From a virus (lineage: Duplodnaviria > Caudoviricetes): a stretch of 47,854 nt of DNA. The stretch's first letter is position 1. Each line of letters opens with the position of its first letter. The DNA lies in the IMG/VR virus record IMGVR_UViG_3300033076_000881, positions 1 through 47,854 of that record. One strand, given 5' to 3'. The position numbers and the translations under genes are program-made. Under the pieces are notes generated by a model. That model did no database searches, was not told where the DNA came from, and saw nothing but the letters and a program-made list of their open reading frames with translations. Shown here one piece after another: positions 22,286 through 39,101 of the stretch.

Positions 22286-24071
22286 AGCGCGGTCCATCCC
22301 ACCCAGCGGCAGCGAGCGGGCAGCCCGGCAGCCACGCAGGGTTCGTTGACATAATCGCTGCGAGCTCGTCACCCGACCCGTGCCAGGCTTCGCTCTCGGC
22401 CAGCACTTCGTCGTGGACGTGCATGACGATCGGATAGCCGGCGGCCTCGGCGCGGAACATCCCGTCAACCAGCACATCCCGCGCAGTGCCCTGGACGATG
22501 TGGTTGAACTGCATCCCGCCATACAGCGTGAAGCTGCCCCACCGCTTCTTCTCACCGTCGTACCCGTCGTAGTCCACACGGCGGCGCTCCCGCATGTGCT
22601 CGACGCCGCCTTGCGCGATCAGCGCCGCCCACTCTTCGGGAAGGTGTTGGTTGTGCAGGACGCGGCTGCCGTCCGGCATGTCGATCCACCGCTCGATCGC
22701 CAGGACGACGCGAGGCTTGCAGTAGGACAGCACCCGGCCGCTGGGCAGGCGGCACCACAGGAAGCCGCGCGCAGACACGTAGGCGACGTGGCCGTTCAGC
22801 GTGTGGACGATCTGGCCGGGGTTGGCGGTCGCTTCGATCGCTGCGTCCTGCAAGTCCCACCAGCCCTGAACGATGCCAGCGTGCTGCTCGCGCCACCCCT
22901 GCACGATCGTCTTGACCGCAGCCCACTGATCCAGCGGCAAGCCGTGCTTGTCGGGCGCCTTGGCGTACTTGTTGCACCACTCGGCGAACCGCTCGAACGA
23001 CACGGTGCGGATGATGGGCACCAGATCGCCCGGGTTCAGCCCGTAGTTCTTGCCCATCGAGATGAAGCTGCCGACGCTGCCCTGGTAGCCGAGCGCCAAC
23101 TCCATCACCTTGCCGATCTGGCGCTTCGCCTTCTGCCGCTTCACCTCGGCTGGATCCTCACCGAAGGCGCGGCCGTAGGCGACGCAGTATAGGTCGGCAC
23201 CAAGCCCGGCGTCGTACGCACCGAAGGCATCCAGCTTCCATTGCTCGCCACCAAACCACGCAGCGAGCCGGCCTTCGATGTTCGACAGGTCGCAGCCCTT
23301 CAGCGTGTGGCCGGGCTCGGCGATGATCATGTTGCGCAGCGTCTTGGCCAGCGGCGCCATGGCCGAGCCGAACAACATGCGCAGCATGTCGTGCGCGCCT
23401 TCAACGTCGTGGCGCAGCAGCACGTCGGTGGCCAGGGAGATGTCAGACCCGTCGCGCTCGGGGTCCACGCGGTACAGGTTGTGCGGCTGCCACAGGCGAC
23501 CGGCCCAGCGGCCCGACGACGCACCGTGGTACTGGAACAGGCCGCGCGCCCGATCATCTCGGCACATCGTGTGCAGCATCGCCGTGTACTTGGCGGTGGA
23601 GGTGCGGCCGGCGTCAGCGCGCAGCGTGATCGCCTGGCGCACCACGTTCGGGGCGTCGCTGGCCACGTCGAGATCGCCAAGCACTTCATCGGCTTCATCC
23701 ATCACGCCGGCTTGCTTGTCCTTGGCGATGCTGTCGCACTTAACGCCGAGGCTTCTGATCCACTCGACGAGCGCCTTGGTCTGGCTGCACTTCTTCACGG
23801 CGCCGCCGGTGACCTTCGCCATCTCGATGTCGAGCATCGCCTTGGCGTGGTCCCGCACCTTGATCGCGTGTTCGATGGCCGCGCGGTCCAGCTTCACGCC
23901 GCGGTCGTTGATCGTCTGATCGAGGATCCACACCCGCCGCTCGCTCTCGGAAAGCGGAGGCGCGAGCCCGTCGAGTTCTGTCTCAGTGACGACATCTTGA
24001 TCACAGTAGTCGCCAAGGCGTGCTACAAGGAGAGGGTCGTCCCACCAGACGTATTCGACAGACGTGCTCAT
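22275..24071 (-). CDS. Family A DNA polymerase, C-terminal piece (ExoIII plus polymerase domain)
   Basis: YCDQDV, YHGASSGRWAG, motif A CDLSNIEGR, motif B RQIGKVMELALGY, motif C HVHDE. Confidence 0.92.
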   Translation of the reverse strand: MSTSVEYVWWDDPLLVARLGDYCDQDVVTETELDGLAPPLSESERRVWILDQTINDRGVKLDRAAIEHAIKVRDHAKAMLDIEMAKVTGGAVKKCSQTKALVEWIRSLGVKCDSIAKDKQAGVMDEADEVLGDLDVASDAPNVVRQAITLRADAGRTSTAKYTAMLHTMCRDDRARGLFQYHGASSGRWAGRLWQPHNLYRVDPERDGSDISLATDVLLRHDVEGAHDMLRMLFGSAMAPLAKTLRNMIIAEPGHTLKGCDLSNIEGRLAAWFGGEQWKLDAFGAYDAGLGADLYCVAYGRAFGEDPAEVKRQKAKRQIGKVMELALGYQGSVGSFISMGKNYGLNPGDLVPIIRTVSFERFAEWCNKYAKAPDKHGLPLDQWAAVKTIVQGWREQHAGIVQGWWDLQDAAIEATANPGQIVHTLNGHVAYVSARGFLWCRLPSGRVLSYCKPRVVLAIERWIDMPDGSRVLHNQHLPEEWAALIAQGGVEHMRERRRVDYDGYDGEKKRWGSFTLYGGMQFNHIVQGTARDVLVDGMFRAEAAGYPIVMHVHDEVLAESEAWHGSGDELAAIMSTNPAWLPGCPLAAAGWDGPRYAK

Positions 24072-25306
24072 CCTAGCAACTCCGCCAGATCGGGGGCGGC
24101 GAACCGAGTGCGCAACTCGGCGAGGTAGGCATGATCTCGCTCGACCAGCACAGCAGAGAAGCCTTCGGCCTGCGCCGCCACGCCGGTTGTGCCGCTGCCG
24201 GCGAATGGGTCCAGTACCGTGCCGCCCGGTGGTGTGATCATGCGAACAAGCCAGCGCATCAGCGCGACAGGCTTGACGGTCGGGTGTTTCGACCCGGCAC
24301 GATCTTCCTTGCCCGCCTTGGCCGAATAGAAAAACCTGGACGCCGTGCCGCTGTCACCCCGTGGCGTCATCGGGTCGTCGGCCCGATCCATCTTCCCGTA
24401 CACCTTGCGAGTGCGCGCACTGTCCGTGTTGCTGCTCGCCGTGCCGAGTTGGCCAGGTCGCTCGCCGAACGCCGCGAAGGCGGCCTCCACTTCGTCGCTG
24501 CCGTCGTGGACGACGTTGGCAGGCCAGCGGCCGACATACGTCTTAGGCTCGCCTTGGGTGCCGCCGGGACGCAAGAGGCCCGGCGCGGCACCCAAGGCGT
24601 TTCCGTTGCAGGGCGCCAGAGATGTGAAAGCAGCGACACGCACCTCGTCACCTATCCGGCACTTGTCAATGTTCAGCGCCCCTGTGCCGTGCGCCAGGAC
24701 GTTCTGTGCCACCGTGCCGGCCAGGGGCTTCCGCGCCAGGATGATCGGCTCCCAGGCCGGCTTCAGCGCCGTGCCCCAGCCTTCCCAGGCGACGGCTTCG
24801 GGCAGTGTCACGGTGACCTTGCCGCCGGACCATCCGCTGTCCGCCTTGTCCGCCATCGTGCGGCGCGACGACTCCTGCCATTGCGCACCGGGGGCGGATG
24901 CCACACCAGTTTCCGCCATCAACGCCGGATCGCGCGCCGAGAAGCGCGAACCCCCGGTGCGGAGATGCGACTCTATGGCTCGCGCCGCGTCATGCGACTT
25001 CGGGAACCCGGTCCCGTAGAGCCACATAAGCGTGTCGCGGATCTCGAAGCCGGCATCCTCGATGGCGACGGCCATGCGGTGGAAGGTGCGCGTGCCGCCG
25101 AAGGCCACCAGATGGCCGCCCGGCGGCAGCAGGTCGAAGCACCGACGCCAGGTCGCCACGTCGAACGCGATGCCCGTGCCATCCCACTCCTTGCCCATGA
25201 AGCCGAGTTCGTACGGCGGGTCAGTGACGATGGACTGAAAAACGCAACCAGCGTCGCGCCAGCCAGCCATGACTTCCCGACAGTCGCCGCCGTAGATGTT
25301 GATCAC
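24068..25306 (-). CDS. DNA amino-methyltransferase (N6-A/N4-C, beta class)
   Basis: TDPPY near the N-terminus; HPTVKP and LDPFAGSGTT near the C-terminus. Confidence 0.92.
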   Translation of the reverse strand: MINIYGGDCREVMAGWRDAGCVFQSIVTDPPYELGFMGKEWDGTGIAFDVATWRRCFDLLPPGGHLVAFGGTRTFHRMAVAIEDAGFEIRDTLMWLYGTGFPKSHDAARAIESHLRTGGSRFSARDPALMAETGVASAPGAQWQESSRRTMADKADSGWSGGKVTVTLPEAVAWEGWGTALKPAWEPIILARKPLAGTVAQNVLAHGTGALNIDKCRIGDEVRVAAFTSLAPCNGNALGAAPGLLRPGGTQGEPKTYVGRWPANVVHDGSDEVEAAFAAFGERPGQLGTASSNTDSARTRKVYGKMDRADDPMTPRGDSGTASRFFYSAKAGKEDRAGSKHPTVKPVALMRWLVRMITPPGGTVLDPFAGSGTTGVAAQAEGFSAVLVERDHAYLAELRTRFAAPDLAELLG

Positions 25307-32057: not shown

Positions 32058-32099
32058 GGTAACAAGTTAACCATACAACGTGCACAGAAAGCGGGTCAA
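32058..32099 (-). promoter_or_regulatory. Sigma70-like promoter overlapping 15-bp operator-like copy 2
   Basis: Minus strand TTGACC-N18-TATGGT running into GGTTAACTTGTTACC. Confidence 0.55.
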
Positions 32100-32389
32100 G
32101 GGTATCCGATGACATTCCGTGCGCGCTGAACCATCGGCGACACCGGCGGCCTTGGGGTGTGTTGTCCATGCCGCAATGCGAGTTCGACGACCGCAGCTTG
32201 CATGGCTTCAACCAGCATGGGGGCCAGCCCGTTCGCGGCGGCCGTGTCGATCAGACCGGCCAGGCGATCGATCGTGGCGAAGGGGTGGGGTGTGTCTCGA
32301 GGGCAGGGCGACGCGTCGCCGTAATCCCAGACAAGGCCGCACGTCATGCAGCGCACGTCGCCGGATACAGTTCGCACAGCGTCACACAT
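32096..32389 (-). CDS. Hypothetical protein with Cys cluster
   Basis: GAGG RBS; C..CMTCG..W...C. Confidence 0.6.
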   Translation of the reverse strand: MCDAVRTVSGDVRCMTCGLVWDYGDASPCPRDTPHPFATIDRLAGLIDTAAANGLAPMLVEAMQAAVVELALRHGQHTPRPPVSPMVQRARNVIGYP

Positions 32390-33012: not shown

Positions 33013-33041
33013 ACAATACCATTTGCCACGACAAACCGCAA
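33013..33041 (-). promoter_or_regulatory. Leftward sigma70-like promoter
   Basis: TTGCGG-N17-TATTGT on the minus strand. Confidence 0.65.
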
Positions 33042-33051
33042 GCGGTAGATT
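33023..33051 (+). promoter_or_regulatory. Rightward sigma70-like promoter, probably giving a leaderless mRNA
   Basis: TTGCCA-N17-TAGATT followed by 6 nt and then ATG 33058, with no SD. Confidence 0.65.
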
Positions 33052-33057
33052 GCGGCC

Positions 33058-33258
33058 ATGGATGACAAAATGCTCCGCGAAAACCTTTTCGTCAGGGTGC
33101 CGACAGGCACCAAAGCCAGGATCGACGCGGCCAGGGGCCACGAGCCGCAGGGGGCCTGGCTGCGCCGGCTGATCCTGGCCGCGCTGTCCGACAATCGCGT
33201 GGAAAAACCGAAACGCGCACTTGCCAAACCGCTAGCACGACAGAGAGGCACACGATGA
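33058..33258 (+). CDS. Ribbon-helix-helix (Arc/CopG-like) regulator
   Basis: LFVRVP.GTKARIDAA......AWLRRLILAAL beta-alpha-alpha pattern. Confidence 0.7.
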   Translation: MDDKMLRENLFVRVPTGTKARIDAARGHEPQGAWLRRLILAALSDNRVEKPKRALAKPLARQRGTR

Positions 33259-33656
33259 CAGACAAGCCCATGTGCCCGCATTGCGCCGACTACGTCGGCA
33301 AGTGTCCCTATTGCCACTCGACGCAGCCCTTGCCGCCCCCGCATGTGGACGACATCAACGATGCCGTGTGGCGCGGTATTGAGCGGGACATGCGGGCTGG
33401 GCTGTGCTGGGCGTGCGGGGTGAGGTGGGGAAGCGGGCACATCAAGGGCTGCCCAGAGGGCGACGACATGGCGGTGGAGCTCGACCGCGCCGCCGCAGAG
33501 ATCGACCGCGCCGCCGCAGAGATCGACCGCGCCGCCGCAGAGATCGAGCGGCTTCGCGGCTGGCTCGCCTACATCGAGGGCAACCACAGCGAGCACCGCG
33601 AGGCCGCGGCCCGTGCGTTGGCGGGTGAGACGCTGCCGAAGGGGTACGAGCCATGA
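33255..33656 (+). CDS. Hypothetical Zn-finger plus coiled-coil protein
   Basis: CPHC, CPYC, CWAC..H...C; (I/L)DRAAAE x3. Confidence 0.65.
   Translation: MTDKPMCPHCADYVGKCPYCHSTQPLPPPHVDDINDAVWRGIERDMRAGLCWACGVRWGSGHIKGCPEGDDMAVELDRAAAEIDRAAAEIDRAAAEIERLRGWLAYIEGNHSEHREAAARALAGETLPKGYEP
33481..33547 (+). repeat. Perfect 21-bp tandem repeat, about 3.2 copies
   Basis: TCGACCGCGCCGCCGCAGAGA x3 plus TCGA. Confidence 0.95.
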
Positions 33657-33877
33657 GCGCGGATAAAACGACCGACGCCTGGGAGCCGATCAGCACGGCG
33701 CCGTGCGACGACACCTGGGCGATGGTCCGCTGGCGAGACGGTAGCGAGGGCATCACGGACCTCGACCACGACAGCGACCCGGCATGGTGGGAAGAGCGTG
33801 GCGCGACCCACTGGCGCGTGCCGACCGAAGCCGAACTAGATGCGTTCTTCGAGAGGTGGGGTGATGAAGCAGCCTGA
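33653..33877 (+). CDS. Hypothetical protein (WxPIxTAP...THW, DUF551-like)
   Basis: WEPISTAP and ATHWR motifs; ATGA overlap. Confidence 0.7.
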   Translation: MSADKTTDAWEPISTAPCDDTWAMVRWRDGSEGITDLDHDSDPAWWEERGATHWRVPTEAELDAFFERWGDEAA

Positions 33878-34106
33878 CGCACAAACGACGACCCCGACGC
33901 CGCATTGGGTCTGGAATTCGGACACCTTCGCCAGCCTCATGCTCGGCCGGGTGCAGCTTGCTCAGATCAGCCGCGGCGCGACGACATGGTCGTGGACCCT
34001 GTTTTTCTGCCGGTCCGACGAGCGATCTTTCTACGGGGCCAAGGACAAGGCGGTGGCGATGGAAACGGCAGAGGCTCACGCCCGGAAGGTGCTGGCAGAT
34101 GCATGA
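33864..34106 (+). CDS. Hypothetical protein
   Basis: GAGGTG RBS; 80 aa. Confidence 0.6.
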   Translation: MKQPDAQTTTPTPHWVWNSDTFASLMLGRVQLAQISRGATTWSWTLFFCRSDERSFYGAKDKAVAMETAEAHARKVLADA

Positions 34107-34173
34107 ACCAAAGCCGACCGCGGAAACGACGACTTAAGCGCCCCGGCCACGTAGCAACCAGGGCGCCCATGCG

Positions 34174-34461
34174 TCACTCGCCGCGCGCTTTGGCGATGGC
34201 GGCGCGGATCTCCTCCGCATAATCGTCAGCACGAACCTTGCGCGGGTTGCCGGAAAGCGTGCAGACCATGTTGCACAACTCGGCGATGCGCTGATTGGCG
34301 ACATCGAGCGCCGCCAGCATGTCGGGCGCGGCATTGGCGCGACGCACCAGCTCACGTAGATCCTGGCCCGATGTCTCGTTGGTCGGGTTGTCCTGCGCGA
34401 TCATTCGGCCATCGGCCTTGACAACGCCCTGACCGTCGAAGCTGTAGCGGATGCGGTTCAT
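34174..34461 (-). CDS. Cassette-array gene 10, hypothetical
   Basis: ATG 4 nt after the 13-nt leader; ANAAPDMLAAL...AAIAKARGE phage motif. Confidence 0.8.
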   Translation of the reverse strand: MNRIRYSFDGQGVVKADGRMIAQDNPTNETSGQDLRELVRRANAAPDMLAALDVANQRIAELCNMVCTLSGNPRKVRADDYAEEIRAAIAKARGE

Positions 34462-34498
34462 GGTCGGATCTCCTATCCGGTTCGGTGCTAGCGGAATG

Positions 34499-34551
34499 CT
34501 GGCATCCGTTCGAGGATCACAGTCGCCCATGATCCTCTAGGCGGGTGTCAG
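34499..34551 (-). ncRNA. Intergenic structured repeat H1
   Basis: CTGACACCCG-CCTA-GAGGATCATGG-GCGA-CTGTGATCCTC-GAA-CGGATGCCAG. Confidence 0.7.
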
Positions 34552-34805
34552 TCGCCGACTTGGCGAACGTAGATCCACACGTTTCGCCCCGCCGTTGTGC
34601 CGCGGTCGCCAGGCACGGGGCGGCCAATGAACGCCTCGAATGTGTGGCTGCGGCCGTTGGGCGTCCAACAATCCAGGCGCATGGTGCGACAGAAGCCGGT
34701 GCGACCGTATTCGCGCGCTGCCTGTCGGTTGGCGAATATTTCGGCTGCTTCACGTGCGCTATCGGCGCGCACAGGCCGGAACCCGTCAGAAGCGAAAAGC
34801 GTCAT
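34548..34805 (-). CDS. Cassette-array gene 9, hypothetical
   Basis: Leader-preceded ATG; stop codon lies inside H1. Confidence 0.8.
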   Translation of the reverse strand: MTLFASDGFRPVRADSAREAAEIFANRQAAREYGRTGFCRTMRLDCWTPNGRSHTFEAFIGRPVPGDRGTTAGRNVWIYVRQVGD

Positions 34806-34830
34806 GGTCGGATCTCCTATCCGTTCGAGG

Positions 34831-34938
34831 TTAGCGGCTGGCCAGGTAGGCGACACCAGCCGAGAGGATCGCAAGGCCGGCGCCTACGGCCAGGGCCGCC
34901 CATGCGAGATGAGCGATTGCATCCTGCACGAAAATCAT
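34831..34938 (-). CDS. Cassette-array gene 8: 35-aa single-TM peptide, not in the ORF track
   Basis: MIFVQDAIAHLAWAALAVGAGLAILSAGVAYLASR; GGGGA RBS and TGACCCATG junction; fills the gap between neighbours. Confidence 0.7.
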   Translation of the reverse strand: MIFVQDAIAHLAWAALAVGAGLAILSAGVAYLASR

Positions 34939-34941
34939 GGG

Positions 34942-35364
34942 TCAGTCCCCCAGGCAGAAATAGATGCGACCATCGGCGCTGGGATAGATATTCGACGGGA
35001 TCTCGCCGCGGCCCATGCGGGGTTCCGCTTCCTCCCAAAATGCCGCCGCATCTAAGGGTTCCGACATGTCCACACCATCCATGCCCATCTCGCCCATGTC
35101 GCAAGCGATGTACTGAAAGAACAGGGCGTTGCACTCGTCAGGCGACAATGCGTCAATCTCGGCATCGTCCCAAGCGCCAAAGCCGCGCATGTAGTCGCGC
35201 AAGGCGTCTAGCTTCTCGGGGGTGTCCAGAAGCACGGTGCGCTTGGCTTCCTCGAGGCTGGCGGCCCATGTGCGCGGCCCTGCATCCGGCCCATGCGTCG
35301 CCACGCTGCCGCTCAAGGGCCAGGTGTCAACGTTGAGCACAAAGTCTGTGATGTCGATTTCCAT
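34942..35364 (-). CDS. Cassette-array gene 7, acidic hypothetical protein
   Basis: Leader-preceded ATG; Asp/Glu-rich, 140 aa. Confidence 0.8.
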   Translation of the reverse strand: MEIDITDFVLNVDTWPLSGSVATHGPDAGPRTWAASLEEAKRTVLLDTPEKLDALRDYMRGFGAWDDAEIDALSPDECNALFFQYIACDMGEMGMDGVDMSEPLDAAAFWEEAEPRMGRGEIPSNIYPSADGRIYFCLGD

Positions 35365-35389
35365 TGTCGGATCTCCTATCCGGGTTGCA

Positions 35390-35448
35390 CTGGTAGTCAT
35401 TCGGCGAGCACAAGCCAGGTTGCCCATGCTCGCCTAGGTGACTGTCAG
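35390..35448 (-). ncRNA. Intergenic structured repeat H2
   Basis: CTGACAGTCA-CCTA-GGCGAGCATGGGC-AACCTG-GCTTGTGCTCGCC-GAA-TGACTACCAG. Confidence 0.7.
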
Positions 35449-35828
35449 CGATACCAGTAGGTCACGTCACCATAATCGACAGACGAATAATCCATGCGCA
35501 ACTCCCGCGCAGCCTCCTTCCAGTCTATGCACGTGCACGGCCACCGTGCATCATCCGGGATCGCGCCAATATCTTCGGCGAGCTGACGCGCATAATCCTC
35601 GAAATAGTCATCTCGAATAATCGATACCGGATACCACGCGCCCTCCCATTGGTGATCGCCGCCGTTGCCGCGGAGATCTTCCAAAAGGCTATCGAGCGTG
35701 GCGAGTTCATCCTGCAATCCGTCATCGTCCGGCCCATCAAGGAAGGTGATCTCACCGCGCAGCTCTTTAACGCGATCCGTGATGTCGCGCACGTCGATTA
35801 TGTGCGCTGTGTTGCTGATGTCTATCAT
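35445..35828 (-). CDS. Cassette-array gene 6: acidic ArdA-like antirestriction candidate
   Basis: FEDYARQLAEDIG.IP...IDWKEAARELRMDY resembles the ArdA C-terminal domain; very acidic. Confidence 0.55.
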   Translation of the reverse strand: MIDISNTAHIIDVRDITDRVKELRGEITFLDGPDDDGLQDELATLDSLLEDLRGNGGDHQWEGAWYPVSIIRDDYFEDYARQLAEDIGAIPDDARWPCTCIDWKEAARELRMDYSSVDYGDVTYWYR

Positions 35829-35860
35829 TGTCGGATCTCCTATCCGTTGTCGGTGCCGGG

Positions 35861-35913
35861 CTGGCCTCCGTTCGGCAAGCACGGTCGCCCATGCTTGCCT
35901 AGGCGGGTGTCAG
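35861..35913 (-). ncRNA. Intergenic structured repeat H3
   Basis: CTGACACCCG-CCTA-GGCAAGCATGG-GCGA-CCGTGCTTGCC-GAA-CGGAGGCCAG. Confidence 0.7.
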
Positions 35914-36143
35914 TCACTCAAACATAGCAAGGAAACCGCCGGGCCACCTATCTCAATATCGTTTGGCATGGGCCAGGGAGTGACATCCACCCATGCGTTG
36001 CAGCACCGGCACTCGGCGCGCCACACCTTGCCGCCCGACGCGAGATTGAGCTTGCGGAATGGCGCCATATCGTGCCCGCGACCCACCGCGGCCTTGCGTG
36101 CTTCACGACGCAAGCGTGTGTCCTTTGTGCGCGTTCCGGTCAT
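35910..36143 (-). CDS. Cassette-array gene 5, small Cys/His protein
   Basis: Leader-preceded ATG; GH...CRCC...C. Confidence 0.75.
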   Translation of the reverse strand: MTGTRTKDTRLRREARKAAVGRGHDMAPFRKLNLASGGKVWRAECRCCNAWVDVTPWPMPNDIEIGGPAVSLLCLSD

Positions 36144-36170
36144 GGTCGGATCTCCTATCCGTTGTGGGTG

Positions 36171-36437
36171 TCAGCGCGACGGCGCGGTGAGGAAGGCCCA
36201 GCACGCCGCGCGCTCCGCCACGTTGCGATAGACGAACCCGAGATACCGGCGCCCATGCGCGGCATCAAATATCGGCTCGATAACGAGGCTCGCGCCCCGC
36301 GCCGCGGCCTGGATCGCCTTTTGCGTGGTGGGCGCCGTGGTGTTGTCCACCGACTTGACCTTGCGGAGTTTGGCGCGGTCAAGCCAATCCAACAGGTCCG
36401 CAGGGCCAACATACTGGCCAACTCGCTCAATCGTCAT
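36171..36437 (-). CDS. Cassette-array gene 4, hypothetical
   Basis: Leader-preceded ATG; 88 aa. Confidence 0.75.
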   Translation of the reverse strand: MTIERVGQYVGPADLLDWLDRAKLRKVKSVDNTTAPTTQKAIQAAARGASLVIEPIFDAAHGRRYLGFVYRNVAERAACWAFLTAPSR

Positions 36438-36448
36438 GATCGGATCTC

Positions 36449-36661
36449 CTATCCGTTGCGCGGCACAGCTACGCCGTGCTGCGTGGTGATGGTGTCACTG
36501 CCGGGCTTGGCCCACCCATAGGCGAAGGCGCGCCCATGCTGCGCTGCAGCCCGTTCGGCCGCCCGCTTGGCTTTCTCGACGCTGACATAGGAGCGCCAAG
36601 CCGGGATGCCGGGGGCGGGGAAGCCAAAACCGACGTCCCGGACGATGTATCGCTCGCCCAT
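36449..36661 (-). CDS. Cassette-array gene 3, hypothetical
   Basis: TGACCCATG junction; its TAG stop lies inside the next 13-mer. Confidence 0.65.
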   Translation of the reverse strand: MGERYIVRDVGFGFPAPGIPAWRSYVSVEKAKRAAERAAAQHGRAFAYGWAKPGSDTITTQHGVAVPRNG

Positions 36662-36664
36662 GGG

Positions 36665-36985
36665 TCAATCCTTCACGTAGGGGATTGCGTAGAGCGTGTT
36701 CATGTAGCGGCCGCGCGCATTGCGCAGGGTGATGTAAACCGCGCCGCGCCCATGCACGTTCTGGTCACTCTCAGTGTGAGTAAACCAAAAGTTGCCGCCG
36801 CTCCGCGCCCATGCCTTGCGATAGTTGGCAGGGAGGCACGACGCGATTGCGTCACTGTCGGGCTTCACGAGATCGCGTGTCGCCTTGCAGAGATGACCGG
36901 CATACATGGCCGGGACCGACTTGACCGGTCCCTTGACCATGCCGCGCACATGGCGCGAAAGGTGTAAGGCCCAAAGCGTTTCCAT
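36665..36985 (-). CDS. Cassette-array gene 2, hypothetical
   Basis: Leader-preceded ATG; 106 aa. Confidence 0.75.
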   Translation of the reverse strand: METLWALHLSRHVRGMVKGPVKSVPAMYAGHLCKATRDLVKPDSDAIASCLPANYRKAWARSGGNFWFTHTESDQNVHGRGAVYITLRNARGRYMNTLYAIPYVKD

Positions 36986-37008
36986 CTCGGGATCTCCTAT
37001 CCGTTGAA

Positions 37009-37061
37009 CTGGTAGTCATTCGAAGCGCACAGAAGCCCATGCGCTTCTAGGTGACTGTCAG
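37009..37061 (-). ncRNA. Intergenic structured repeat H4
   Basis: CTGACAGTCA-CCTA-GAAGCGCATGG-GCTT-CTGTGCGCTTC-GAA-TGACTACCAG. Confidence 0.7.
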
Positions 37062-37327
37062 ATCACGGCGCGCGTCGAGACGCGATGCTCGGGCGGCGTG
37101 TCATCCCACCGCACCATGAGAATGGTGCAACAACCCCGCGGCACCCACCACACTTCGTCACCGAAATCCCCGGTGATGTCACCTTTGACGCCGCGAAGGC
37201 CGAACTCCGCGCGAGCCTTGCGCATCGCCGCCTTGGGGTTGTCGGCGCTTTCGACGTAGCAGCGCCGCACCCAGGAATAGTTTGCTTCGCCGCCAAAAGT
37301 GTCAGTGTATTCAGCGAAATAGGCCAT
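37058..37327 (-). CDS. Cassette-array gene 1, conserved phage hypothetical
   Basis: Leader-preceded ATG; EYTDTFGGEANYSWVRR motif. Confidence 0.8.
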   Translation of the reverse strand: MAYFAEYTDTFGGEANYSWVRRCYVESADNPKAAMRKARAEFGLRGVKGDITGDFGDEVWWVPRGCCTILMVRWDDTPPEHRVSTRAVI

Positions 37328-37427
37328 TGTCGGGATCTCCTATCCTTGCGACACGCAGACCCTACCAGACACCAGACAAAATGCACAATCTGATATCCGC
37401 CATCCTAACACACTTGTAATGTGAGCC

Positions 37428-38105
37428 CTATTCACTCGGCTTTGCGGCCTTCTCTGCCGCCTTCCTCTCACGATAGCGTTCCATGGCGGGCTTTTCGGCA
37501 TTGGCGCACAAGATGCACAAGAACCTGTAGTTTGCCGCCGTCACAGGTTCGCCCTTCTTCCATAGCTTCGCAGCTCCGGCCTTGTAGCGCGGATTGATTG
37601 GCCACCATCGCTTGACCTCGGGCCATGCGGAAACCGGGATTTCCGGGCCGTCTAGCATGGTGCGGACCTCCACTAGGCAGTCATACTCCCCGAGGCTCGC
37701 AATCTGCACCAGCGCGGCCCTGCCGTCGCTCAGGTATCCCACCGCAAAGCCTCCTACCTCATATGACGTGGCAATGCGCGGGGGCTTTCCGTCCTTCACA
37801 CGATCCAAGGGCCATAGCCTGCGCTTAGTGCGCCAAGTCTCCGGCCATGCGCCGCCGACTTTGAAGAAATCCGCAACCGGCACGTAGTCGCACGTCCACA
37901 CGTCATCCCAAGGGGCGAAGGCGACACACATCAAGCGACTGTCAGCAGTTATTCTCATCCAGGCCGCAGCCCCTGACGATGTGCGAACCCTCATGACGTG
38001 ATCGTTAGGCCAGTCACCCATTAGCAAGGCCCATTCTGCCGCTTGCTTCAAATGCTCGGCTTCTGAGCCAGCGAAATCCGTTTGGACGTCACTTGACCAT
38101 TCCAT
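37428..38105 (-). CDS. Hypothetical Trp-rich protein, lower GC (start uncertain)
   Basis: Long ORF; internal echo AWPETWRTKRRLWPLD / AWPEVKRWWPIN. Confidence 0.55.
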   Translation of the reverse strand: MEWSSDVQTDFAGSEAEHLKQAAEWALLMGDWPNDHVMRVRTSSGAAAWMRITADSRLMCVAFAPWDDVWTCDYVPVADFFKVGGAWPETWRTKRRLWPLDRVKDGKPPRIATSYEVGGFAVGYLSDGRAALVQIASLGEYDCLVEVRTMLDGPEIPVSAWPEVKRWWPINPRYKAGAAKLWKKGEPVTAANYRFLCILCANAEKPAMERYRERKAAEKAAKPSE

Positions 38106-38854
38106 GTGGCCGGTCCCCAGACTGATAGGTCTATAAGCCCTCCATCTCCAGGCGGCGGAGCCTGGGGATGGTAGGGCCTTAATAGGACTACCAGATAAAA
38201 CGATACGTGCAACTAGAAGCTTGTCGGTGGGGATGAGACTGCAAGGACTGATGGCAGTTTGCTGGTGCTCCCCTGTCACACCACAAACTGACATCAAGCC
38301 ATGCTGCACATCCTGCAAAACAAGACAGGATGTGAGCATTAACTGCATTTTGGTTTATTAGTCAGGATGTGCAGAGATTGGGCGTGCTGTATGGTCTCGT
38401 CGGGCTGAAAGGGCTATTTGCGGTATGCGCTCGACCTCGAGACGCCCTTCCTGACATTCACTCCCGTTATGTGCATCACATTCACATGCCAGGTCTGGCG
38501 CACCAATCCCCGGGCGCGGCTGCGGCGGCCCAACATGCTCAGCCTGCACCAATCCAGCGGCTCGAGCGCAACCAGCACGCGAAACCGGCGCGCGATCCAT
38601 GCATGTCGTGCATCACCGGCTCGGCTGGCCCAAGTAATATCAATAGCTTAGCGCGCTACTTTCCATAATAGATGTTATGCTGCATCGCTTGTCGGCCTTC
38701 CTGGCGGGGTTTCGGGCTGCTCGGGCGGGATGGTGCGCCCCCGCACCCCACCCCCGGTCGATCGCGGCGCGCGGGAGGGGGTGGCCCCGCCGCACCCGCC
38801 CCGCCCCTCTCCAGCCCACCTGCCCCGAACATCTAGCACTATATTTTACGCTAC

Positions 38855-38924
38855 GTCCAAGCCTTACGTTATGCCCGCCTCCATCCTACGCACCGTGTCC
38901 AAGCCTTACGTTATGCCAGCCTCC
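38855..38924. repeat. 28-bp direct repeat pair in the divergent non-coding region
   Basis: GTCCAAGCCTTACGTTATGCC(C/A)GCCTCC at 38855 and 38897. Confidence 0.9.
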
Positions 38925-39101
38925 CTCCACAAATATTGTACTATTTGCCAATCCCCACGTTACCACCCACACATTTTGTCAAACTCACTCGTAGTCCCTA
39001 AGAACTAGTCCCCACACCCTTTTCCTCGAAAGCGGCCTAAATCCTCTACTTGACACCACTCGCTTTTGTGATGCAGGCTCGTTTTGGCAAAGGAGGCCAC
39101 C

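Follow-up and report, generated by a model that had tools for sequence, protein, structure and literature searches.

An array of small unrelated genes, joined by repeated hairpin and leader junctions and rich in a single heptamer, in a podovirus genome

The DNA analyzed here (the window) is the 47,854-nucleotide record IMGVR_UViG_3300033076_000881 (Duplodnaviria; Caudoviricetes), a complete, circularly permuted podovirus genome of 47.9 kb; an identical contig bridges base 47854 to base 1. Its minus strand carries, with the replication module on one side and the terminase on the other, an array of ten open reading frames (ORFs) of 35–140 aa at 34174-37327. An earlier note, made from the sequence alone, had described ten co-oriented, unrelated small genes assembled from a few kinds of junction. 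ORF calls and an all-against-all BLASTP search among the ten cargo proteins (best E value 0.47, between two cargo proteins) bear out the first point, and the junctions bear out the second: four consist of a stop codon, a hairpin and a leader, two of the tight sequence TGACCCATG, and the leader is an exact 13-nucleotide sequence, GGATAGGAGATCC. Contigs from two runs of one study cross the array without differences, though one of these runs may be the source sample; no RNA data set was listed among the sequencing runs that contain it. The array and its signals are, as the evidence below indicates, real and under selection.

The genes are numbered g1 to g10 from the highest coordinate downward, all on the minus strand. 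The first, g1 (37058-37327; 89 aa; phrog_22729), has a homologue in another viral small-gene array (L024), where it lies near a homologue of g6, while g2 (36665-36985; 106 aa; phrog_8778) carries two copies of the heptamer discussed below. The TAG stop of g3 (36449-36661; 70 aa) falls within the next leader, and near the 3′ end of this gene (36455-36497) an out-of-frame TGACACC followed by a hairpin resembles a decayed junction, which suggests that g3 has run on through a former junction. Neither g4 (36171-36437; 88 aa) nor the Cys/His-containing g5 (35910-36143; 77 aa) has a family match. The acidic product of g6 (35445-35828; 127 aa; 24% Asp plus Glu; phrog_25535) shows weak similarity to ArdA and other anti-restriction proteins. 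The claim of ArdA-like cargo in the earlier note thus stands in part: the PHROG anti-restriction match has an E value of 2.8e-5, but the Pfam match to PF07275 (ArdA; E 0.003) scores 18.5 bits, below the cut-off of 27. Solved structures gave no match to g6; its acidic character would fit a DNA mimic. Also acidic (21% Asp plus Glu) is g7 (34942-35364; 140 aa; phrog_24784), with four heptamer copies and a confident structural model (predicted local distance difference test, pLDDT, 92), for which a fold search of the PDB returned nothing at E<=0.001. The 35-aa hydrophobic product of g8 (34831-34938) is probably a membrane peptide; g9 (34548-34805; 85 aa) belongs to a real family with 234 cluster representatives at E<=0.001, and g10 (34174-34461; 95 aa) to phrog_1273.

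The leader GGATAGGAGATCC occurs in eight exact copies, all on the minus strand and within the array (37333-37345, 36990-37002, 36442-36454, 36148-36160, 35833-35845, 35369-35381, 34810-34822 and 34466-34478; overall span 34466-37345), and no further copy was found across the 47.9 kb even with two mismatches allowed. The leaders end 4–5 nucleotides before an ATG, placing their AGGAG 8–9 nucleotides upstream of it, and folding shows the leader itself to be a 5-bp hairpin with the Shine-Dalgarno sequence in the loop, a feature overlooked at first reading. The two tight TGACCCATG junctions, likewise on the minus strand, join g2 to g3 (36659-36667) and g7 to g8 (34936-34944). Eight of the ten array genes end in TGAC, as had been counted earlier, compared with 18 of 81 long-ORF stops genome-wide (binomial P 1.7e-4).

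Hairpins occupy four of the nine internal junctions, which fold with z-scores of -2.6 to -4.4. Two subtypes, A and B, alternate as non-adjacent pairs on the minus strand. Type A follows g1 (37009-37061) and g6 (35390-35448, with an apex longer by 6 nucleotides); type B, with a GCGA loop, follows g5 (35861-35913) and g9 (34499-34551). The hairpin after g1 starts with C-UGA-CA and consists of a 10-position lower arm, a CCUA/GAA internal loop and an 11-bp upper stem. Compensatory changes are present in 7 of 17 pairs, and 68 of 68 cells pair, compared with 25–42% in slid controls, although only four sequences enter this count. The short junctions that follow g4 and g8 appear to have arisen from type B by deletion. 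A search of Rfam gave one chance match only and no catalogued RNA family or ribozyme; model R1, run over 69 sources, scored above 20 bits only for its own four source hairpins. None of the junction hairpins is followed by a U-tract terminator.

The hairpin led to one informative relative. A pattern for the leader had 15 single-copy matches in viral contigs and two in metagenomes, none of them beside a cargo homologue, and a hairpin pattern that included the heptamer core had none. A pattern limited to the lower stem and internal loop gave two matches, one of which was dropped since it did not fold; the other lies in G002, a complete phage genome of 48,279 bp. It should be noted that one of the four hairpins of G002 was therefore selected by construction, while the synteny and the other three hairpins were not. 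Other routes were less productive: when the array was compared by BLASTN with 50,697 phages, g6 alone gave matches; terminase and helicase queries retrieved, besides distant loci, a single identical contig, in which the array is not covered; and a g1 query found none.

Of 45 window proteins tested, 18 match G002 at 25–57% identity (portal 57%) and in conserved order, and the array of G002 occupies the same slot, with a 225-aa ORF upstream (in the window at 37428-38105, minus strand) and genes for helix-turn-helix (HTH), RuvC and SNF2 proteins downstream. None of the ten window cargo genes matches G002 at E<=1e-3, and the only one of the 13 G002 slot proteins that matches the window does so at 32096-32389, outside the array. 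Within this slot lie four hairpins of the same family. All eight hairpins begin with CUGACA at the stop codon, end with CCAG, measure 49–59 nucleotides and have A.C at pair 4; the best G002 hairpin scores 49 bits with model R1 (E 4.5e-14), and one of the four in G002 still has the CCUA/GAA loop. The earlier proposal that junctions are conserved while cargo changes thus holds, and the fixed gene content among relatives that the note had named as counting against it is not what G002 displays, its cargo being wholly different. The 13-nucleotide leader, the heptamer enrichment, the methyltransferase and the plus-strand operon at 33058-34106 are absent from G002. The hairpin is thus ancestral and has survived full cargo turnover, because G002 shares the hairpin family and the slot but no cargo; the leader and heptamer are specific to the lineage. 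A separate feature of G002 is a duplicated promoter-like unit (L095:560-640 and 1535-1620; TTGACC, 17 nucleotides, TA-type -10), each copy preceded by an inverted repeat, one lying before the array and one inside it; the consensus scan did not call these units.

The second signal, which the earlier note does not mention, is the heptamer CATGGGC, of which the array holds 15 sense-strand copies and one on the other strand, while the remaining 44.6 kb hold 10. An order-3 Markov model predicts 0.35 copies in place of the 15 seen (P 7e-20), and any single-base variant has at most two. The 15 minus-strand copies (34165-37041; 5′ ends at 37041, 36813, 36754, 36662, 36538, 36257, 35893, 35428, 35295, 35270, 35098, 35017, 34904, 34531 and 34171) start at the first junction and continue as far as the last stop, and the interval 37345-39084 has none. 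Four copies lie in hairpin apices, two at other junctions and nine in coding sequence, the last in all three frames and compared with at most five in 2000 synonymous shuffles. No common RNA structure surrounds the copies. The word is present in none of seven homologous genes; at the DMG site of g7, five covering homologues have R (four) or Q (one) where the window has G, the other three g7 sites being less informative. Newly acquired genes appear to have gained heptamer copies through mutation.

Several known systems resemble the array, and the suggestion of an undescribed system does not survive the comparison: PeSL (promoter early stem-loop) cassettes, the leaders of cluster K phages and the processing sites of T7 are all precedents (PMC2839356, PMC3203893). 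PeSLs guide the shuffling of small phage genes by repeats and without an integrase, and their authors compared them to integrons (PMC2839356, PMC4122927); genes are gained and lost there as the units recombine, and mini-circles have been demonstrated, at about 1 in 100,000 virions (PMC2839356). Common to both are repeated intergenic units flanking variable small ORFans that differ between relatives, and the lack of an integrase. However, PeSLs are promoter-plus-terminator units of about 100 bp, whereas the window junctions measure 9–92 nucleotides, have no detectable promoter or U-tract, and are accompanied by a covarying hairpin with an internal loop and by a heptamer in coding regions.

The leader, in turn, recalls the start-associated sequences (SAS) of cluster K mycobacteriophages: both are 13-nucleotide elements in one orientation, with an AGGAG core and self-complementary ends, just before the ATG of non-structural genes (PMC3203893). 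The 9-nucleotide core is identical, about half of SAS have an upstream inverted repeat, and the spacing rule of 3–7 bp before the start is one with which the window leaders comply at 4–5 nucleotides. On the other hand, all eight leaders differ from the SAS consensus at 3 of 13 positions, the membership limit being 2, and the phage family is unrelated. The repeats of extended SAS (ESAS) are described as unlikely mRNA hairpins, whereas the window hairpins covary; the function of SAS and ESAS is still unverified (PMC3203893, PMC12699233).

The RNase III signals of T7 are similar to the hairpins in starting at the stop codon between cistrons, in a helix of about two turns, in an asymmetric internal loop below a 9–11 bp upper stem with a tetraloop, and possibly, in the window, in the distal-box pair. 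They belong to an early operon holding an anti-restriction gene, to which the weak ArdA match of g6 and a presumed early timing would correspond in the window. Unlike them, the window hairpins carry antideterminants in the proximal box as defined for the Escherichia coli enzyme, from which that of the host may differ. Integron cassettes are defined by attC R boxes (RYYYAAC ... GTTRRRY) and the tyrosine recombinase IntI. The array shares with them a hairpin that follows the ORF and overlaps its stop codon, and a variable cargo, but it has no integrase, and neither box is present on either strand of the eight hairpins (four in the window, four in G002). Searches for tyrosine and serine recombinases matched none of the window proteins; the absence of attC boxes and of an integrase reported earlier is thus upheld, and the array, known here from contigs among which no excised form appears, is not an integron. 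It would work like a PeSL-type exchange module combined with T7-like processing hairpins and a SAS-like leader, although by strict membership it belongs to none of the three.

Homologues of the cargo are found in other arrays and in different orders. Those of g6, at 17 viral and 20 genome loci, are widespread in viral small-gene arrays; a g7 homologue lies immediately before that of g6 in L016 and L018, the reverse of the window order, and the distance between them differs again in L025, L027 and L080. Five of 43 cargo-homologue loci bear at least three copies of a Shine-Dalgarno-containing leader of their own. Two close phage contigs, 92–97% identical in shared blocks (L064:5020-7290 and L065:780-2810), each have a whole gene that the other lacks, and the breakpoints fall in the ribosome-binding leaders; leader-bounded exchange is thus shown for an analogous array, not for that of the window. 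An unrelated small-gene array at L087:3900-8000 (QZKG01000016.1), which includes a g6 homologue, has a full junction module of different sequence, composed of a stop, AATCGC, a hairpin of 3–4 bp (loop ending in UCAA, compensatory stems) and a repeated leader; by analogy, this module resembles a boxA/boxB-type RNA site.

In our opinion, with a probability of about 0.5, the block represents an accessory-gene operon of variable content in an integrase-less podovirus; its hairpins would serve as RNase III-type cutting and stabilizing signals and the short repeats as homology for exchange. The operon would be transcribed early by the host polymerase, and a host RNase III-like enzyme would nick each hairpin within the internal loop, so that a protective 3′ stem would stay on the upstream message, while the downstream one would receive a short leader with its Shine-Dalgarno sequence displayed in a weak hairpin loop. 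The short junction repeats would allow the gain and loss of whole genes through ordinary recombination, and a gene recombined in at a leader or stop would be expressed at once. RNase III-type processing, taken by itself, has about even odds. Hairpins of equal size form in five early intercistronic segments of T7, with an upper stem of 9–10 bp and, in four, an asymmetric internal loop; the geometry of the window hairpins agrees with these and with a 22-bp RNase III substrate. The T7 records retrieved carry no annotation of site names or cut positions. Single-strand cleavage by RNase III that leaves stabilizing 3′ hairpins has been described (PMC3867540), and the register is that of R1.1, with A-U at proximal position 2 and U-C at position 4 (PMC1540722). 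In this register, all four window hairpins have the A-U/U.G distal-box pair, and the predicted cut lies on the 3′ side of the internal loop. The apical G.U pairs, together with sense-strand loops of the GNRA type in three of the four window hairpins and cUACGg in three of the four G002 hairpins, favor a sense RNA.

A number of observations weigh against this proposal. The distal-box match overlaps the heptamer and may be its by-product, and by inspection the G002 hairpins lack it. In the proximal box, position 2 is G-C or C-G in three of four window hairpins and position 4 is G-C in every one of them, pairs that inhibit E. coli RNase III, although the E. coli rules may not be those of the host (PMC1540722). 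The non-coding strand folds about equally well, the A.C mismatches of the lower arm turning into wobble pairs there, so that either strand of the hairpins may be the working one. The promoter scan called no strong promoter and no site at any junction, its two sites in 6.8 kb equaling the shuffle mean; a candidate weak sigma-70/extended -10 promoter (37359-37388, minus strand) was read by eye only, at a place that the scan did not call. Exact identity between junctions extends over just 13–23 nucleotides, one relative at about 55% identity cannot locate breakpoints, and no protein could be tied to the heptamer. Finally, the excised or reordered cassettes envisaged in the earlier note did not appear: contigs assembled from two runs, at depths of about 22 and 9, contain no rearranged junction, rare variants being dropped in such contigs. 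Contigs would not reveal PeSL-like mini-circles, because these occur at a level of about 1 in 100,000 virions. A single skip within the array (34203-34307; one contig, depth 2.7, 26-nucleotide side) lies inside g10, not at a junction, and was set aside.

The antideterminants also bear on a different reading, which we consider rather improbable, namely that the hairpins remain uncut and act as 3′-exonuclease barriers, pause sites, or U-less or Rho-dependent partial terminators that lower expression stepwise along the operon, nearer to the stem-loop of PeSLs. Their presence in all four window hairpins agrees with it, as does the start of every hairpin exactly at the stop codon, and covariation demonstrates structure, not cleavage; yet a simple barrier needs neither a conserved internal loop nor a constant length of 49–59 nucleotides in two phages, and the junctions lack U-tracts, whereas the G002 array ends in a normal U-tract terminator. 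It is quite unlikely that the hairpins act instead as DNA, on the non-coding strand or as a cruciform, in the manner of attC-analogue sites for an unrecognized recombinase or a phage RuvC-like resolvase: the lower arm does form a nearly continuous 10–12 bp helix on the non-coding strand, 13 of the 14 sense-strand lower-arm mismatches are A.C or C.A, both phages have a RuvC-like gene downstream and the cargo is completely replaced between them, but transitions by themselves yield A.C mismatches, the loops and apical G.U pairs suit sense RNA, only four of the nine internal junctions have a hairpin, there are no integron boxes, and tyrosine recombinases are absent from the window and from G002, as are serine recombinases from the window.

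For the heptamer, the foremost reading, if one to which we assign somewhat less than even odds, is that a phage-encoded regulator binds it as an oriented site on duplex DNA and so addresses the operon as a whole, in the fashion of stoperators. The stoperators of cluster A mycobacteriophages are also numerous asymmetric sites oriented with transcription (PMC9283540), as is the window word at 15:1. They are 13-mers, occupy short intergenic spaces all over the genome and bind the immunity repressor of a temperate phage (PMC9283540), whereas the window word is a 7-mer confined to one operon, with 9 of 15 copies coding, in a phage without an integrase. Candidate readers, by correlation of two genomes only, are the genes present in the window but not in G002. 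More tentative is the broader notion that some phages mark a whole swappable operon with a private word, which incoming cargo is recoded to carry despite amino-acid changes, that one phage factor silences, protects or times the anti-host payload, and that the hairpins are the slots.

The restriction of the word to the sense strand and its co-extension with the operon are also what one would expect if it were read in the transcript, by an RNA-binding protein, a sequence-specific ribonuclease that shuts off early messages or the seed of a small RNA, or else in the non-template strand while the transcription bubble is open. This ranks second among readings of the word and is, in our view, doubtful: its first five bases are predicted to be paired in all four hairpins, the copies share no structural context, the word is not depleted on the other sense strands of the genome, and no candidate small RNA or ribonuclease was found. 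Ranked last, as an improbable option, is that the plus-strand GCCCATG is a host Chi-like site clustered to halt RecBCD/AddAB entering from the packaging end; the word region is sharp-edged and the array sits between replication genes and terminase, where Chi motifs of lambdoid phages cluster (PMC3784561), but the 1.7 kb between the array and the late genes, non-coding DNA included, lacks copies, the word has a density of 4.6 per kb where Chi, in E. coli phages, has about 0.2, and it is absent from G002.

A strict 7-mer scan covered 35 cargo-homologue loci of at least 3.5 kb (7 shorter ones dropped) and 33 control loci (2 shorter ones dropped). Two of the 35, L017 and L087, have an equally extreme 7-mer (log10 P <= -12), the controls reaching -9.6 at best; the L017 word is scattered through coding sequence, while that of L087 lies chiefly at junctions. 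The array at L017:5100-7850, which includes a repeated leader and a homologue of g6, has TGGGG about 26 times on the sense strand, within coding sequence and in every frame, and once on the opposite strand. Candidate words in L021, L022, L027 and L029 did not exceed the controls, the apparent one-strand word of Ralstonia phage DU_RP_II proved to be a pentapeptide-repeat gene, and a Chi-like role for the L087 word was rejected, given its scarcity elsewhere in the bin (163 in 2.3 Mb). The idea of a priming site was likewise abandoned: genome enrichment of the NrS-1 site is not supported, the paper giving two copies (PMC7102993). A literature search, in which coverage of subscription journals was thin, found no relevant report of an operon-confined coding-strand heptamer in phages.

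The rest of the genome provides the setting. The portal is of the epsilon15/Rauchvirus type, with a best match of 39% to a cultured portal, and other genes encode a terminase, a family A polymerase, a primase-polymerase/helicase, an SNF2 helicase, a RuvC-like resolvase and a DNA methyltransferase, the last being an orphan N6/N4 enzyme (24068-25270) not present in G002. Atlas searches with the 225-aa ORF and with g2 yielded nothing usable. A 16-bp hairpin without a U-tract (34135-34169, minus strand) follows g10 and closes the array; on its other side lies a plus-strand operon (33023-34106), whose four small genes converge on the array. The first gene of this operon, a 66-aa ORF at 33058, has by eye only the look of a ribbon-helix-helix protein (poor model, pLDDT 57), and a 21-bp triple tandem repeat at 33475-33537 interrupts assemblies. 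In the largely non-coding divergent early/late region, an inverted repeat and a 32-bp direct repeat (38304-38374 and 38855-38928) are possible operators, an origin or a genome end.

The junction makes it possible to trace, by sequence, a hotspot of small phage genes, at which two related phages keep wholly different cargo in the same slot and which is probably rich in host-takeover and anti-defense functions. Through it, junction-guided gene shuffling, familiar from the PeSLs of T4-type phages, is extended to podoviruses of one lineage and linked with an RNA hairpin that Rfam does not list. The surprise lies in the heptamer, which by its statistics is an unambiguous signal, specific to the lineage and placed within protein-coding sequence.

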